From a virus (lineage: Duplodnaviria; Heunggongvirae; Uroviricota; Caudoviricetes), in IMG/VR virus record IMGVR_UViG_2778261249_000003, positions 1 through 5,172 of that record: DNA of 5,172 nucleotides. One strand, given 5' to 3'. Position numbers and translations under genes: made by a program. Below the pieces are notes generated by a model. The model had not been told where the DNA came from, did no database searches, and was given only the letters and a program-made list of their open reading frames with translations. How positions within the stretch are numbered: the first letter of the stretch is position 1; the number at the start of each line of letters is the position of its first letter. Of this stretch, positions 1 to 5,172 are shown in pieces.

Positions 1-534
1 CTGCGTATTCAGCAGGCGTTTGAAGGTTTAAGCGTCGCCGGGTCGGTGGGGGCCTATCAGTATCATGGTCGCAGTGCCGACGGGCGTGTCGCGGATATTT
101 CTGTCACCAGTCCGTCTCCGGCCTGCGTCACCATCTCTGTGCTGTCACGTGAAAATAACGGTGTGGCATCCGAAGACCTGCTGGCGGTGGTGCGCAACGC
201 CCTTAATGGTGAGGACGTCAGACCGGTGGCCGACCGTGTGACCGTGCAGTCTGCCGTCATCGTTGAATACCAGATAAATGCCACGCTTTACCTTTATCCT
301 GGCCCCGAAAGCGAACCCATTCGCGCTGCCGCCGTGAAAAAATTGGAAGCGTATATCACGGCACAGCACCGGCTGGGGCGCGACATCCGACTGTCTGCCA
401 TTTATGCCGCTTTGCATGTGGAAGGCGTGCAGCGTGTCGAACTGGCTGCACCGCTGGCCGACATCGTGCTCAACAATACGCAGGCGTCTTTCTGTACCGA
501 ATACAGCGTCGTGACCGGAGGCTCGGATGAGTGA
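1..534 (+). CDS. J: Baseplate assembly protein J, C-terminal part (5' end lies outside the window)
   Basis: Frame 1 is open from nt 1 with no stop until TGA at 532-534; the ORF track's start at 46 is an internal GTG. Sits directly upstream of the tail protein I homolog and overlaps its start (ATGAGTGA at 527-534), the J-I-H order of P2-like tail clusters. Assignment rests on synteny and recalled similarity, not a search. Confidence 0.8.
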   Translation: MRIQQAFEGLSVAGSVGAYQYHGRSADGRVADISVTSPSPACVTISVLSRENNGVASEDLLAVVRNALNGEDVRPVADRVTVQSAVIVEYQINATLYLYPGPESEPIRAAAVKKLEAYITAQHRLGRDIRLSAIYAALHVEGVQRVELAAPLADIVLNNTQASFCTEYSVVTGGSDE

Positions 535-1138
535 TTCGCGACTGCTGCCGACCGGCTCATCACCGCTTGAAGTCGCTGCCGCAAAAGCCTGTGCGGAAAT
601 TGAAAAAACGCCGGTCAGTATTCGTAAGCTGTGGAACCCGGACACCTGCCCGGCAAATCTGCTGCCGTGGCTGGCGTGGTCATTTTCGGTTGACCGCTGG
701 GATGATAAGTGGCCGGAAGCGACAAAACGCGCTGTTATCCGCGATGCGTATTTCATTCACTGCCATAAGGGCACTATAGGCGCAATCCGGCGTGTGGTGG
801 AGCCGCTCGGCTATCTGATTGAGGTGAGGGAGTGGTGGCAGCTCAACGAGGAGCCGGGGACGTTCCGCATCGTTGTTGGCGTGCTTGAGCAGGGTATTAC
901 CGAGGAAATGTATCAGGAGCTGGAGCGCCTCGTTACTGATGCAAAACCGGCAAGCCGCCATCTGACGGGACTGGCTATCAGTTTAAGTACAACCGGCAAC
1001 ATTTTTGCCGGTGCGGGATGCTATCACGGCGACGCCCTGACGGTTTATCCCTACACCCCGGAGGCCATTATTGTCGGAGGGGATTATTTCCCGGCCTCGG
1101 CCATTCATTTAATTGATAACCTGAGAGTAAACGCATGA
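527..1138 (+). CDS. I: Phage tail (baseplate) protein I
   Basis: 203-aa ORF starting MSDSRLLPTGSSPLEVAAAKA. GGAGG at 517-521 lies 5 nt upstream of ATG 527. Start overlaps the J stop and the stop (1136-1138) overlaps the H start (ATGA at 1135-1138). Position between J and the tail fiber gene. Confidence 0.88.
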   Translation: MSDSRLLPTGSSPLEVAAAKACAEIEKTPVSIRKLWNPDTCPANLLPWLAWSFSVDRWDDKWPEATKRAVIRDAYFIHCHKGTIGAIRRVVEPLGYLIEVREWWQLNEEPGTFRIVVGVLEQGITEEMYQELERLVTDAKPASRHLTGLAISLSTTGNIFAGAGCYHGDALTVYPYTPEAIIVGGDYFPASAIHLIDNLRVNA

Positions 1139-2502
1139 CAGTGAAATACTACGCCATTCTGACTAATCAGGGCGCGGCACGGCTGGCTAACGCGACGATG
1201 CTCGGCAGTAAGCTGAATCTGACGCAAATGGCCGTTGGTGATGCGAATGGTGTCTTGCCGACACCAGACCCGGCACAGACAAAACTGATTAATCAGAAAC
1301 GCATTGCACCGCTGAATCTTCTGAGTGTTGACCCGAACAACCAGAGCCAGATTATTGCGGAGCAAATCATCCCTGAGAACGAGGGCGGATTCTGGATCCG
1401 TGAGATTGGGCTTTATGATGATGAAGGCGTACTCATTGCGGTGGCGAACTGCCCGGAAACGTACAAACCGCAGTTGCAGGAAGGCAGTGGTCGTACCCAG
1501 ACTATCCGCATGATTCTGGTTGTCACGAATACCGAAGCTATTACGCTGAAAATCGACCCATCGGTGGTACTGGCGACCCGTAAATACGTGGATGATGAAG
1601 TCCTGGAATTAAGGCTGTATGTGGATGAACAGATGAGAAACCACATTGCCGCACAGGATCCTCATACCCAGTATGCACAGAAACATAATCCGACATTTAC
1701 CGGAGAACCAAAAGCGCCGACGCCTGCCGCAGGAAATAACACCACGCGGATTGCGACCACTGAGTTTGTTCAGGCCGCTATTACCGCTCTGATTAACGGT
1801 GCGCCAGCCACGCTGGACACACTGAAAGAAATTGCCGCAGCCATTAACAATGACCCGAAATTCAGCACCACCATTAACAATGCGCTGGCACTGAAAGCTC
1901 CGCTGTCGAGTCCCGCACTTACCGGAACGCCAACAGCACCTACTGCGGCACAGTCGGTCAACAATACACAGATTGCCACCACGGCTTTTGTGAAATCAGC
2001 AATTGCGGCAATGGTGGGTTCTGCCCCTGCGGCACTGGATACACTGAATGAACTGGCGGCGGCGCTGGGGAATGACCCTAACTTTTCAACAACAGTGCTT
2101 AATGCACTGGCAGGCAAACAACCGCTGGACAATACGCTGACTAATTTGAGTGGAAAGGATGTTGCTGGTCTTCTCGCATACCTTGGTTTGGGAGAAGCGG
2201 CAAAACGGAATGTGGGAACAGGGGAAAATCAGATACCTAGTATGTCAGAATGGACATCTGGGACAGGATGGAATAGAGACCCGTCGGGGAGAATAATACA
2301 GCGGGGATTTGCTATGACATCAAGTCAAACTAACATTTTATTCCCGATACCATTTCCGTATGACGATTTCGAAGTTATCGTTTGTGCAGCAGATACAGGA
2401 GCAAATAAAGGGGCCGTAAATGTGTTGCGAAAATCGAGGCAGGGGTTTTCTGTTTCACAGGTTGGAAGTATGCCAGTCGCATACAGATGGATAGCGGGGT
2501 GA
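1135..2502 (+). CDS. H: Tail fiber protein H: constant N-terminal shaft (aa 1-350) plus the currently expressed variable C-terminal tip (aa 351-455)
   Basis: 455-aa ORF. N-terminus (MTVKYYAILTNQGAARLA...MAVGDANG...GGFWIREIGLYDDEGVLIAVAN) is typical of P2/Mu-type tail fiber N-terminal domains. Contains two tandem ~75-aa repeats in the shaft. The left 26-bp crossover site lies in-frame at 2171-2196 (codons L-L-A-Y-L-G-L-G-E). Sequence downstream of the site is AT-richer. Confidence 0.9.
   Translation: MTVKYYAILTNQGAARLANATMLGSKLNLTQMAVGDANGVLPTPDPAQTKLINQKRIAPLNLLSVDPNNQSQIIAEQIIPENEGGFWIREIGLYDDEGVLIAVANCPETYKPQLQEGSGRTQTIRMILVVTNTEAITLKIDPSVVLATRKYVDDEVLELRLYVDEQMRNHIAAQDPHTQYAQKHNPTFTGEPKAPTPAAGNNTTRIATTEFVQAAITALINGAPATLDTLKEIAAAINNDPKFSTTINNALALKAPLSSPALTGTPTAPTAAQSVNNTQIATTAFVKSAIAAMVGSAPAALDTLNELAAALGNDPNFSTTVLNALAGKQPLDNTLTNLSGKDVAGLLAYLGLGEAAKRNVGTGENQIPSMSEWTSGTGWNRDPSGRIIQRGFAMTSSQTNILFPIPFPYDDFEVIVCAADTGANKGAVNVLRKSRQGFSVSQVGSMPVAYRWIAG
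2171..2196. other. Left crossover site for DNA inversion (gix/cix/pix-like, 26 bp): TTCTCGCATACC-TT-GGTTTGGGAGAA
   Basis: Two 12-bp half-sites around a 2-bp core (TT at 2183-2184). The right half-site GGTTTGGGAGAA is the exact reverse complement of the left half-site of the 3954-3979 site. Perfect 15-bp inverted repeat: 2183-2197 TTGGTTTGGGAGAAG versus 3953-3967 CTTCTCCCAAACCAA. Half-sites fit the TTnTCnnAAACC-type pattern of Hin/Gin-family sites. Confidence 0.85.
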
Positions 2503-2507
2503 TTGAA

Positions 2508-2945
2508 ATGTATAAATTTGATCCAAAGAATGCATTATTCTATCCTGCCGCGTCAATTTCCGATTATAAATTGAGCGAAGATGAAATCGCCACATTCACT
2601 GATATTAGCGAGGAGGATGCAACCGAGTTTTTAGGATTCCCGCCGACTGGAAAAATCAGAGGGTCGGACGGTTATGGCAATCCTGCATGGGTTGAAATAC
2701 CTCCACCATCACATGAGGAACTTATTGAACAGGCCGAATCAGAGAGGCAATTATTGATTAACCATGCCAACGAATACATGAACAGTAAACAATGGCCTGG
2801 TAAAGCGGCTATTGGTCGTCTGAATGGTGAGGAACTGGCGCAATATAATTTGTGGCTGGATTATCTGAACGCACTGGAACTGGTTGATACCTCCAGTGCG
2901 CCAGATATTGAATGGCCTACGCCTCCGGCAGTTCAGGCCAGATGA
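2508..2945 (+). CDS. Tail fiber assembly (chaperone) protein, expressed orientation
   Basis: ORF ending ...LAQYNLWLDYLNALELVDTSSAPDIEWPTPPAVQAR, the conserved C-terminal motif of phage tail-fiber assembly proteins. ATG 2508 is preceded by GGGG at 2496-2499 (8-nt spacer) and follows the H stop (2500-2502). An in-frame ATG at 2487 would overlap H by 16 nt and has no obvious SD, so the start is ambiguous between 2487 and 2508. Confidence 0.8.
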   Translation: MYKFDPKNALFYPAASISDYKLSEDEIATFTDISEEDATEFLGFPPTGKIRGSDGYGNPAWVEIPPPSHEELIEQAESERQLLINHANEYMNSKQWPGKAAIGRLNGEELAQYNLWLDYLNALELVDTSSAPDIEWPTPPAVQAR

Positions 2946-3510
2946 CATCCGGCGCGGTGCTGGTATCTGTTGCCGTCACCGCGTCAATGTAATCCAGCAC
3001 AGCGTTAAGTCGGGTGGTTTCTGCCTGCGTCAGTTTACGTCCGGCCTGCAATTTCAGTTGAATCAGACTGATGGAAGCCATTGCAGTATCAATCAGCGAC
3101 TGGCGCTGTGCTTCTGCTGCATCTACTGCGGCGCTATGCTGTGCCTCAGTATCTGTCACCCATTTCTCACCATCCCATTTATCGTATGGCGTTAACGGTG
3201 AAAGCGTGACATAACCGTCTTTGATGGCACCGATATAATCCACTGTAACAGCTGCGCCATTTTCGATTGAGTAAACAGTCTCATTGCGGTGGTCTTCTTC
3301 ATGGCTCCATCCCTTACCCGTAAATACTGCCACTTTCCCCGGAATGTATTCGCCCGGGTCAATACCAGTGGAACAGGCGGGCATACTTACGCCAGTATTA
3401 ATATATTCATCAGACCAGCCCGTATACTCAGATGTTTCAGCATCATAATAAAAACAACGCATATCGCCCGGCACTGTAGCCAGCCCATTTTCATCAAAAA
3501 CAGGTTTCAT
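2917..3510 (-). CDS. Tail fiber assembly (chaperone) protein, alternate copy (Tfa') inside the invertible segment
   Basis: 197-aa minus-strand ORF with C-terminus ...LNAVLDYIDAVTATDTSTAPDVIWPELPEA, the same motif as the + strand chaperone, but an unrelated N-terminal half. Its ATG (3508-3510) overlaps the stop of the upstream minus-strand fiber cassette (TAATG). GAGGG lies about 9 nt upstream on the minus strand. Its 3' end overlaps the + strand chaperone gene by 29 bp (2917-2945). Confidence 0.85.
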   Translation of the reverse strand: MKPVFDENGLATVPGDMRCFYYDAETSEYTGWSDEYINTGVSMPACSTGIDPGEYIPGKVAVFTGKGWSHEEDHRNETVYSIENGAAVTVDYIGAIKDGYVTLSPLTPYDKWDGEKWVTDTEAQHSAAVDAAEAQRQSLIDTAMASISLIQLKLQAGRKLTQAETTRLNAVLDYIDAVTATDTSTAPDVIWPELPEA

Positions 3511-4007
3511 TATTTAGCCCTCACCAGAAAGTTAAATGCAATATTTCGCGGTCTGACAGCAACAAAATTCACACCATCACCCACAGAGTTACTGGTGAAA
3601 TTAAATCGTGAAAATCCTGGCTGATTTCCGGCGATGCCATCATGAAAGTTAATTGCGTGTCCCGCACCTCCGCCTATATTCCCGGCAAACTGAGAAAAGT
3701 TTGTAGCTTCCTGCCAGCTTAATAATTCGCGACCACCATCGGCACCTCGCCCGTCATCCCAGATACGAATGAAATCACCGCGGGCTTCAGGTAATACCAG
3801 TGAAGGAAACACTTTCGCCAGCACAGGGTAATCAGAGGCAGAAAATTTCGCCCCGTTGAACTTCAAAAACACCATACTGGACCAGCTGTCGATTACAGTA
3901 TTTGGCATTGCAGCGGACGGCCAGAAGAACGGAACGCCAATAGCTGGAGCACCTTCTCCCAAACCAACGTTTATGAAAATGCAGAGATAACGGGCAAGTG
4001 GCATCAT
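3510..4007 (-). CDS. Silent alternative tail fiber C-terminal cassette (Sv'-like; tail-collar-type receptor-binding tip), not joined to a fiber N-terminus in this orientation
   Basis: Minus-strand ORF, 165 aa as drawn from a Met-Met at 4007. The right crossover site (3954-3979) lies within it, encoding G-L-G-E in the same codon phase as the left site in H. The downstream 151 aa (GAPAIGVPFFWPS...LPEARGDFIRIWDDGRGADGGRELLSWQ...) carry a motif recalled as the phage tail-collar domain. Functional extent after inversion would be 3510..3966 fused to H codons 1-350. Confidence 0.75.
   Translation of the reverse strand: MMPLARYLCIFINVGLGEGAPAIGVPFFWPSAAMPNTVIDSWSSMVFLKFNGAKFSASDYPVLAKVFPSLVLPEARGDFIRIWDDGRGADGGRELLSWQEATNFSQFAGNIGGGAGHAINFHDGIAGNQPGFSRFNFTSNSVGDGVNFVAVRPRNIAFNFLVRAK
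3954..3979. other. Right crossover site for DNA inversion (26 bp): TTCTCCCAAACC-AA-CGTTTATGAAAA, inverted relative to the left site
   Basis: Core AA at 3966-3967 is TT on the minus strand. The reverse complement TTTTCATAAACG-TT-GGTTTGGGAGAA matches the left site in its core and entire right half. Located 55 bp upstream of the invertase start codon. Confidence 0.85.
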
Positions 4008-4034
4008 CTCCGGTTTTTATTCAGGGGGATGCTC

Positions 4035-4628
4035 ATGCTTATTGGCTATGTACGCGTGTCAACAAATGACCAGAACACGGAATTGCAGCGTAACGCGCTG
4101 GAGTGCGCAGGATGTGAGCTGATTTTTGAGGATAAAATCAGCGGCACGAAGTCCGACAGGCCGGGGCTGAAAAAACTGCTCAGAACATTATCGGAAGGTG
4201 ACACTCTGGTTGTCTGGAAGCTGGACCGGCTGGGGCGTAGTATGCGGCATCTGGTCATTCTGGTTGAGGAGCTGCGCGAACGCGGCATTAATTTTCGCAG
4301 CCTGACGGATGCCATTGATACCAGTACGCCGATGGGGCGTTTTTTCTTTCATGTGATGGGTGCCCTGGCTGAAATGGAACGAGAGCTCATTGTCGAGCGG
4401 ACTCGGGCCGGGCTGGAAGCGGCCAGAGCCAAAGGTCGTATTGGTGGCAGACGTCCTAAACTCACCGCGAGTGAGTGGGAGCAGGCCGGGCGTTTGCTGG
4501 CTGCAGGGGAGTCACGTCAACGCGTGGCACTGATTTTTGATATTGGTCTGTCCACGCTCTATAAAAAATTTCCCTCATCAGCGACAAAGAATAAATTGTG
4601 TCATCCCTTAGCCAACCGGGACAAATAG
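4035..4628 (+). CDS. Serine-recombinase DNA invertase (Gin/Cin/Pin/Hin family)
   Basis: Translation MLIGYVRVSTNDQNTELQRNAL...LVVWKLDRLGRS...GINFRSLTDAIDTSTPMGRFFFHVMGALAEMERELIVERT...RIGGRRPKL... has the resolvase/invertase catalytic domain with the nucleophilic Ser at codon 9 (TCA 4059-4061) and a C-terminal HTH region. AGGGGG at 4023-4028 lies 6 nt upstream of ATG 4035. The ORF-track start at 4029 would leave no spacer after that SD. The gene lies immediately outside the right crossover site, as in the Gin/Cin/Pin arrangement. Confidence 0.93.
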   Translation: MLIGYVRVSTNDQNTELQRNALECAGCELIFEDKISGTKSDRPGLKKLLRTLSEGDTLVVWKLDRLGRSMRHLVILVEELRERGINFRSLTDAIDTSTPMGRFFFHVMGALAEMERELIVERTRAGLEAARAKGRIGGRRPKLTASEWEQAGRLLAAGESRQRVALIFDIGLSTLYKKFPSSATKNKLCHPLANRDK

Positions 4629-4687
4629 CCTGACATCTCCGGCACAACTGAAAATACCACTCACCCATTAACCACGGAGTTGAACGG

Positions 4688-5172
4688 ATGAGTGACTATC
4701 ATCACGGCGTGCAGGTGCTGGAGATTAACGACGGCACCCGCGTCATTTCCACCGTATCCACTGCCATTGTCGGCATGGTCTGCACGGCCAGCGATGCGGA
4801 TGCGGAAACCTTCCCCCTCAATAAACCGGTGCTGATTACCAATGTGCAGAGCGCAATTGCAAAGGCCGGTAAAAAAGGCACGCTGGCGGCATCGTTGCAG
4901 GCCATCGCCGACCAGTCAAAACCGGTCACCGTTGTCGTGCGTGTGGAAGACGGCACCGGCGACGATGAAGAAACGAAACTCGCGCAGACCGTGTCCAATA
5001 TCATCGGCACCACCGACGAAAACGGCCAGTACACCGGACTGAAAGCCCTGCTGGCGGCGGAGTCGGTAACCGGTGTTAAACCGCGTATTCTCGGAGTGCC
5101 GGGACTGGATACCAAAGAGGTGGCTGTTGCACTGGCATCAGTCTGTCAGAAGCTGCGCGCTTTCGGGTATAT
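4688..5172 (+). CDS. FI: Tail sheath protein FI, N-terminal part (3' end lies outside the window)
   Basis: ATG at 4688 preceded by GGAG at 4676-4679 (8-nt spacer). Frame is open to the window end (161 codons, no stop); the six-frame track omits it for lack of a stop. Translation [54 protein letters not shown]... matches my recollection of the P2 FI sheath N-terminus. Confidence 0.88.

Follow-up and report, generated by a model that had tools for sequence, protein, structure and literature searches.

Tail-fibre switches driven by DNA inversion have already been demonstrated in the e14 prophage and in P2-like prophages (PMC4272514). In clonal cultures of Escherichia coli K-12, the e14 segment is found in the forward orientation in approximately 51% of cases (PMC4272514). 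Goldberg et al. (2014, PMC4272514) also measured inversion in the P2-like prophages of EPEC E2348/69, again using clonal cultures; there, as in e14, it takes place at repeats nearly the same as those described here, and sequencing and PCR revealed that both orientations coexist (PMC4272514). Invertible fibre switches have moreover been noted as common in the Z/fun hotspot of P2 (bioRxiv 10.1101/2024.10.15.618418).

The locus analysed here lies in a window of 5,172 nucleotides from the virus record IMGVR_UViG_2778261249_000003. It is a cassette of the e14/Pin type that occupies the variable hotspot (Z/fun) of a P2-like prophage. The first-pass annotation had proposed a host-range switch of a known class, and the e14 and P2-like precedents (PMC4272514) agree with that classification. 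With a probability of roughly 0.9, we assign the locus to the Pin-type, Fis/enhancer-dependent serine invertase systems, situated in the tail-fibre region of an E. coli prophage that is P2-like (Peduovirus). In the proposed mechanism, dimers of the invertase (encoded at 4035–4628) would bind two 26-bp sites at 2171–2196 and 3954–3979 and, with host Fis on an enhancer in the 5′ end of the invertase gene, would make staggered cuts at the TT/AA core; strand rotation and religation would then flip the 1,781-bp segment. In the window, the constant part of the fibre gene H runs on into tip A, with chaperone A next in order; inversion joins it in frame to tip B, with chaperone B downstream. Since the orientation determines which tip is joined to H, the virions of one lysogen population would carry either receptor-binding tip.

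Crossover sites and inversion of the segment

The left crossover site (pixL-like; 2171–2196) is located inside gene H and has the sequence TTCTCGCATACC TT GGTTTGGGAGAA, with the TT core at 2183–2184. The right site (pixR-like; 3954–3979) has the sequence TTCTCCCAAACC AA CGTTTATGAAAA, with the AA core at 3966–3967. Both are 26 bp long, composed of two 12-bp half-sites and a 2-bp core, and they are inverted with respect to each other, so that the TT and AA cores are identical when the sites are aligned in inverted orientation. The core-to-core distance is 1,781 bp. The 27-nt arms of the inverted repeat (2171–2197 and 3953–3979) are 81% complementary (22/27) and include a perfect 15-bp core (2183–2197 and 3953–3967), a perfect repeat of this length being obtained by chance in 3 of 200 dinucleotide-preserving shuffles. 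The first-pass annotation had described both this geometry, with a spacing of about 1.78 kb, and the perfect repeat, and both descriptions are borne out.

When the sequence was scanned for TTNTCNNAAACCNNGGTTTNNGANAA, the consensus of the family, with at most three mismatches allowed, exactly these two sites were found, with one mismatch each, compared with 0.01 expected by chance, and two hits were obtained in none of 200 shuffled sequences. The sites align with known crossover sites of the pix, gix and cix types, an alignment on which the earlier proposal had depended, and together with the sites of the Mu and P1 systems they have a common consensus, TTNTCNNAAACC-NN-GGTTTNNGANAA. The right site agrees with that of e14 at all 26 positions and with that of an EPEC P2-like locus at 25 of 26, and the left site matches the left site of e14 at 23 of 26 positions. 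No third crossover site, such as would characterize a shufflon of the kind seen in the three-repeat EPEC P2-like locus, was detected by the consensus scan or by a looser regular expression. A pseudo-site at 3489–3514 and the right site's outer half have a 12-nt inverted repeat in common; the pseudo-site is attributed to chance because its two halves are shifted by one base against each other and it has a CA core.

The window form of the region is a 100% match to E. coli E5, 64.1 and GPEC1258, and the form inverted in silico is a 100% match to E. coli E7 and APEC17 over 2,491 nt. The blocks of the alignment overlap over precisely the 15 bp of the repeat, which places the breakpoints inside it. 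The occurrence of both orientations at 100% identity, together with breakpoints in the repeat, indicates that the DNA between the sites does invert, as judged from the comparison of these five complete E. coli genomes, and supports the earlier suggestion that the switch is likely to be active. Among relatives of 89–95% identity with a coverage of at least 80%, the window orientation is present in 12 genomes and the inverted one in 6, both counts including the 100% matches named above. The opposite orientations occur in different strains, with flanks that differ by 0.4–0.9%; clonality of E5 and E7, which would date the flip, was ruled out by the identity of their flanks (99.1–99.6%). The locus provides a clean worked example of how the comparison of complete genomes alone can confirm an inversion.

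The sequence by itself places the breakpoint only within the 15-bp perfect repeat, a position that would also be consistent with RecA-dependent recombination between inverted repeats, or with an assembly error, instead of a site-specific reaction. Efficient RecA recombination in E. coli usually needs roughly 23–27 bp, and the 15 bp of perfect identity (22/27 overall) fall below this length. Moreover, the repeat corresponds exactly to the core plus the inner half-site of a canonical invertase site, and five independent complete assemblies agree, so that an origin by RecA or by misassembly is barely credible. It is also very unlikely, although slightly less so, that the locus is a frozen relic whose parts look intact but which no longer inverts, its two orientations having been fixed long ago in separate lineages. 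The genomes of opposite orientation are not clonal, as the flanks of E5 and E7 indicate, and to this extent they would fit such a history. However, the 2.49-kb region is 100% identical in the five genomes despite their opposite orientations, which argues for a recent flip. The invertase, the sites and the predicted enhancer carry no lesion, in keeping with the earlier statement that every component is intact, and homologous loci flip at measurable frequency in single colonies (PMC4272514). We therefore favour a recent, site-specific inversion by a functional switch.

Fibre tips and their chaperones

The tail-fibre gene H (1135–2502, plus strand) encodes an N-terminal domain that belongs to the Pfam family Phage_tail_fib (E = 1.3e-62) and a Gp53-like_C tip. 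Its constant N-terminal part, of the P2 gpH type, is encoded at 1135–2170 (plus strand) and is common to both fibre forms; residues 184–340 of H share 78% identity with P1 S. In the window orientation, H is fused to tip A (2197–2502, plus strand), which comprises 101 amino acids and matches Gp53-like_C with an E value of 4e-7. Tip A has a 100% match in CP019275.1 and is 40–48% identical to the tips of other P2-like invertible cassettes. Tip B (3510–3953, minus strand; 147 amino acids) is a promoterless alternative, silent in the window orientation. According to Pfam it is Collar-like, and the two tips are unrelated to each other. Tip B shares 95–98% identity with the expressed fibre tips of the lambdoid phages mEp043, mEp213 and 500465-2. 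No similarity was detected between tips A and B and the fibre tips and chaperones of Mu and P1.

Inversion in silico joins tip B to H in frame, replacing the 455-residue H with an open reading frame of 501 residues (H′), which is likewise open in E. coli E7. PGAP splits this fused fibre of E7 into two “incomplete” pieces and labels the silent tip of E5 a pseudogene, although the reading frame is intact in each case; automated annotation gives parts of the cassette the wrong labels.

The two tail-fibre assembly chaperone genes both belong to the Caudo_TAP family. Chaperone A (2508–2945, plus strand; 145 amino acids; E = 4e-31) is predicted to be expressed together with tip A, and chaperone B (2917–3510, minus strand; 197 amino acids; E = 3e-27) after inversion. 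The genes are convergent, with 3′ ends that overlap by 29 nt, and the ATG of chaperone B overlaps the stop codon of tip B by 1 nt. The C-terminal 78 residues of chaperone A share 67% identity with e14 TfaP, and chaperone B is 64% identical to e14 TfaE. Two alternative tips and two convergent chaperone genes between the sites, as read in the first-pass annotation, are thus confirmed, and in both orientations a constant fibre N-terminus is combined with an alternative C-terminus that is followed by its own Caudo_TAP chaperone gene. By analogy with other fibre switches, receptor specificity, and with it the host range, would be expected to change between the orientations. Host-range prediction or engineering of the prophage must consider both of them.

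Invertase gene and predicted enhancer

The serine DNA invertase of the Pin/Gin/Cin/Hin group (4035–4628, plus strand; 197 amino acids) is encoded outside the invertible segment, with its start codon 55 bp past the right site, and thus just beyond that site, where it had been placed before. It is composed of a Resolvase domain (Pfam, E = 3e-52) and an HTH_7 domain (E = 1e-12), matches the Gin structures 3uj3 and 4m6f (E = 1e-94), and is 87% identical to PinE, 79% to Cin, 77% to Gin and 80–81% to the EPEC invertases. The catalytic residues are kept, with S9, R7, D64, R65 and R68 invariant with Pin, Gin and Cin. In Hin, the residues contacting Fis or the enhancer that are specific to invertases are K47, R48 and K51, and Q151, R154 and L155 (PMC3798978). 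The invertase of this locus has K46, K47 and R50 as well as Q150, R153 and L154, of which the last three are also invariant in Pin, Gin and Cin. With its numbering offset by one residue from that of Hin, the product of 4035–4628 keeps the Fis/enhancer-contact residues of Din-family invertases.

A recombinational enhancer is predicted at 4053–4124, inside the 5′ end of the invertase gene. This stretch corresponds without gaps to nucleotides 19–90 of cin, annotated in the P1 record as the Cin enhancer. It contains Fis-like 15-mers at 4057–4071 and 4105–4119, with centres 48 bp apart; a 48-bp spacing rule for Fis sites was reportedly put forward by Johnson, Glasgow and Simon in 1987. In gin, cin and pinE the motifs recur at matching positions; conservation of the region does not constitute independent evidence for the predicted enhancer, because the conserved catalytic motif is encoded there as well. 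The centre of the first motif is approximately 98 bp from the right core, the corresponding enhancer-to-site distance in the native hin locus being approximately 100 bp (PMC3798978). Motif and position together suggest that Fis binds here and that inversion would be Fis dependent. In a simple scan for sigma-70-like promoters, none was found between the right site and the invertase start codon; overall, promoter-like hits were as numerous as expected from shuffled sequences.

The linked invertase might nevertheless be dispensable or secondary, with inversion mainly carried out in trans by the enzyme of another resident prophage, for instance e14 Pin or a Mu-like Gin. Gin, Cin, Pin and Hin cross-complement one another, the crossover sites are identical or nearly identical to those of e14, and many E. 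coli genomes contain several related loci (matching places per genome: median 2, maximum 13). A further precedent is the invertase of the P2-like phage Fels-2, which acts on the Salmonella hin locus (Kutsukake 2006, ref 43 in PMC4272514). However, the linked invertase is intact, with all catalytic and Fis-contact residues kept, and its gene occupies the canonical cis position, with the predicted enhancer approximately 98 bp from the site. We consider a predominantly trans-acting enzyme improbable, and the flip is probably catalysed by the linked invertase rather than by another resident one; the effect of the switch is unchanged in either case.

The last codons of the invertase reading frame, which terminates within the late promoter pF of P2, overlap the binding site of the activator Ogr. 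Ogr binding might affect the 3′ end of the invertase gene, and through the overlap the expression of the invertase, or read-through, might become linked to the activation of late genes; if such coupling were true, flipping would be biased at prophage induction. Separately, the centre of the segment, 421 bp that are 91% conserved, could serve as a homologous-recombination hub between e14-like and P2-like elements, at which half-cassettes consisting of a tip and a chaperone N-terminus could be swapped. Both proposals are speculative and we regard them as doubtful.

Comparison with known inversion systems

The switch is real but ordinary, given its close relationship to the e14/Pin switch of E. 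coli K-12. As a discovery it matters little, since Din-family fibre switches are textbook material and were already known from this location.

The G segment of Mu with Gin and the C segment of P1 with Cin resemble the locus in having a constant fibre N-terminus, a choice of two C-termini with a separate chaperone for each, and an invertase encoded outside the segment; their enhancer, like the one predicted here, is placed within the 5′ end of that gene. However, their segments are larger (3 kb in Mu and 4.2 kb in P1) and their variable parts longer, the core dinucleotide of Mu is TC/GA, and their tips and chaperones have no detectable similarity to those described here. The EPEC loci share with the window a P2-like tail module, an invertase gene flanked by the fibre cassette on one side and the sheath gene on the other, a Gp53-like tip and two convergent tfa genes. 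Their tip sequences differ from those of the window; one EPEC locus sits in a truncated prophage, and the other has three sites and four variants in a shufflon-like arrangement, whereas exactly two sites are present here.

Compared with e14, a defective lambdoid element, the host element here is a complete P2-like myovirus prophage. Its tip A is unrelated to StfP, its tip B shares just 40% identity with StfE′, and its invertase has a 13-residue C-terminal extension that reaches into the P2 pF promoter region. The gene order, by contrast, is the same in both (fibre, tfa, tfa′, silent tip, invertase), the two chaperone genes have the same 29-nt antisense overlap, the central 421 bp of the segment are 91% identical in DNA, and the chaperones are 64–67% identical. 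The Gin/Cin/Pin-type architecture recognized in the first-pass annotation is supported by these comparisons, which point, at the level of sequence, to Pin/e14 of E. coli K-12, and not to Gin or Cin, as the closest relative of the locus.

Tail module and invertible segment

The window comes from a P2-like (Peduovirus) prophage and represents its tail module, with the end part of the baseplate gene J (46–534), gene I (527–1138), the fibre gene H (1135–2502), two convergent tail-fibre assembly genes that both encode Caudo_TAP proteins (chaperone A, 2508–2945, plus strand; chaperone B, 2917–3510, minus strand), a promoterless fibre tip (tip B, 3510–3953, minus strand), a serine recombinase gene (the invertase, 4035–4628) and the start of the sheath gene FI (4688 onward). 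This map agrees with the first-pass annotation, which had placed two convergent chaperone genes and alternative tips between the crossover sites and the invertase just outside the right one. The nearest phage records are P2-like phages with a 'DNA invertase' (for example pro483, S164 and 'P2' from O157:H43 T22), and in Escherichia coli E5 and E7 this element is found as a P2-like prophage that looks complete and adjoins ogrK and fieF. Homology to canonical P2 resumes at 4608, within the annotated pF (Ogr) activator-binding site, and the cassette therefore occupies the G / Z-fun / FI interval. The G+C content is 44–50% over the invertible segment (2100–3900) and 55–58% in J and I, which belong to the P2 backbone; this difference fits a horizontally acquired cassette.

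Exchange at the site cores in silico preserves the H reading frame, giving a fibre of 455 residues with tip A (window orientation) or 501 residues with tip B (inverted). Chaperone A starts 5 nt after tip A, and the ATG of chaperone B shares one base with the tip B stop codon. Tip A, which ends in a Gp53-like domain, is matched at 100% identity by a tip in CP019275.1 and at 40–48% by tips of other P2-like invertible cassettes. Tip B shows a weak Collar match and is 95–98% identical to expressed fibre tips of the lambdoid phages mEp043 and mEp213 and the P2-like phage 500465-2. A mechanical open reading frame (ORF) of the silent tip spans 3510–4007 (165 residues), with its ATG beyond the right site (3980–4007); this start is probably spurious, and nothing in the fused fibre corresponds to the residues it adds at the N terminus (MMPLARYLC...).

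The chaperone genes share 29 nt at their 3' ends (2917–2945), as they do in e14, the E. coli K-12 prophage encoding the PinE invertase, and in the loci of enteropathogenic strain E2348/69 (EPEC). The central 421 bp of the segment (2778–3198) are 91% identical to e14 and both tips are diverged or replaced, making the segment a mosaic with a conserved core, which could mediate cassette exchange. Residues 184–340 of constant H (1684–2154) contain, in duplicate, a unit of about 56 residues (T.IATT.FV..AI.A..G.AP..LDTL.E.AAA..NDP.FSTT..NALA.K.PL) and share 78% identity with fibre protein S of P1, a trace left by the exchange of fibre genes between P1-like and P2-like phages.

Crossover sites, invertase and predicted enhancer

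The top inverted repeat returned by the repeat finder has arms at 2171–2197 and 3953–3979 (27 nt, 81% complementary), with a perfect 15-bp portion at 2183–2197 and 3953–3967. By itself the 15-bp repeat is only suggestive, because 3 of 200 dinucleotide-preserving shuffles also produce one. The family consensus TTNTCNNAAACCNNGGTTTNNGANAA, scanned with up to three mismatches tolerated, matches exactly two places (expectation 0.01), each with one mismatch: the left site (2171–2196; TTCTCGCATACC TT GGTTTGGGAGAA) and the right site (3954–3979; TTCTCCCAAACC AA CGTTTATGAAAA). Repeat arms and scan thus bear out the earlier proposal of two inverted 26-bp sites sharing a perfect 15-bp repeat. That repeat joins the core dinucleotide to the inner half-site plus one extra base; identity does not extend outward beyond the core, as would be expected from recombination there. 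Where tip B meets chaperone B, a site-like sequence (3486–3514; TTTCATCAAAAA CA GGTTTCATTATT) has a 12-nt inverted repeat (I10 in the repeat listing) in common with the right site's outer half. This sequence is off register by one base, its core is CA, and it is probably a chance match or a decayed site.

The invertase shares 87% identity with PinE, 77% with Gin of Mu and 79% with Cin of P1, matches Gin crystal structures (E = 1e-94) and conserves S9, R7, D64, R65 and R68. It also carries basic helix-B residues (K46, K47 and R50) and helix-1 residues (Q150, R153 and L154) whose counterparts in Hin of Salmonella are specific to Fis/enhancer-dependent invertases (PMC3798978). Relative to PinE it has a 13-residue C-terminal extension, which lies within 4574–4628. 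Given where P2 homology resumes, its stop codon (4626–4628) is P2 backbone sequence and its ORF overlaps the sheath operon's late promoter; the TGT-N12-CCA spacing found in P2 is retained in the pF-site region (4597–4619).

A gapless alignment of the 5' ends of the window invertase gene, gin, cin and pinE places two Fis-like 15-mers at gene nucleotides 23–37 and 71–85 in all four; the Cin enhancer is annotated at cin nucleotides 19–90 in the P1 record. The window motifs (4057–4071, TGTCAACAAATGACC; 4105–4119, GCGCAGGATGTGAGC) are 48 bp apart centre to centre, equal to the Fis-site spacing of the Hin enhancer. Conservation of this predicted enhancer is not independent proof of function, since the same stretch encodes the catalytic motif. 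The right core lies about 98 bp from the first Fis-like centre, and the corresponding distance at the native hin locus is about 100 bp (PMC3798978).

Orientation in E. coli genomes

Positions 2185–3965 were inverted in silico and 5,426 complete E. coli genomes were searched. The inverted form is matched at 100.0% in one piece of 2,491 nt in E7 and APEC17, and the window form at 100.0% in 64.1, E5 and GPEC1258. Relatives of 89–95% identity likewise occur in both orientations, 12 genomes being window-type and 6 inverted (coverage of at least 80%; each count includes the 100% matches). Alignment of the window with E7 gives blocks 1–2197 (+), 2183–3970 (−) and 3953–5172 (+), which overlap by exactly the 15-bp repeat, and the fused 501-residue ORF of E7 is open. 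RecA recombination or an assembly artefact, to which the two forms might otherwise be ascribed, is the least probable origin considered here, and a frozen relic is very improbable. Flanks of E5 and E7 are 99.1–99.6% identical, so these strains are not clonal; these orientation data are evidence of recent flipping in the lineage, not within one culture. To that extent they support the suggestion that the switch is likely active.

The 2.49-kb switch region (1811–4300) is 100% identical in five genomes; between E5 and E7, surrounding prophage and chromosome differ by 0.4–0.9%. PGAP/RefSeq annotates the intact 501-residue fibre of E7 (locus L001, 17325–18830) as two 'incomplete' pseudogene pieces, and the silent tip of E5 (locus L002, 19700–20161) as a pseudogene without an N-terminus. 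Such artefacts of annotation are typical of invertible segments.

Ordinary Din-family inversion is the best-supported explanation, with a probability of roughly 90%. Invertase dimers would bind the two sites, with Fis on the enhancer within the invertase gene; after staggered cuts at the TT/AA core, the subunits would rotate and the strands be religated, flipping the segment and exchanging the tip-and-chaperone pair expressed from the P2 late V operon. Because the core is non-palindromic, only inversion is possible, not deletion. The reaction is presumably Fis-dependent and driven in cis by the linked invertase rather than another resident one; catalysis mainly in trans by such an enzyme is unlikely, and is compatible with Din-family inversion. 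The two orientations may differ in host range.

Relation to known invertible loci

The gene order of e14 (stfP, tfaP, tfaE, stfE', pinE) is that of the window. Its sites are CTCTCGAAAACC TT GGTTTGGGAGAA and TTCTCCCAAACC AA CGTTTATGAAAA; the window right site is therefore identical and the left site departs from its e14 counterpart at three outer positions, and the sites do align with known ones. The P1 cixR site (TTATCCAATACC), which is functional, has the A-to-T change of the left outer half-site (ATACC) as well. For e14 and two P2-like prophage loci of EPEC E2348/69, paired-end sequencing and PCR of clonal cultures showed the two orientations side by side (Goldberg et al. 2014, PMC4272514). 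The repeats reported there (Table S1) are AAACCTTGGTTTGGGAGAAGG for e14 (51% forward) and TTGTTTGGGAGAAG for the EPEC P2-like locus (93% forward), and that of the window is TTGGTTTGGGAGAAG. The EPEC loci share the window layout, their invertases are 80–81% identical to that of the window, and one EPEC right site is identical to the window right site at 25 of 26 positions. A DNA invertase is frequent at the Z/fun hotspot of P2-like phages, with inversion of adjoining genes (2024 preprint, 10.1101/2024.10.15.618418). Such systems, their location in P2-like prophages and near-identical sites have thus been described before, with experimental validation of homologous loci; only the particular tip pair is specific to this allele.
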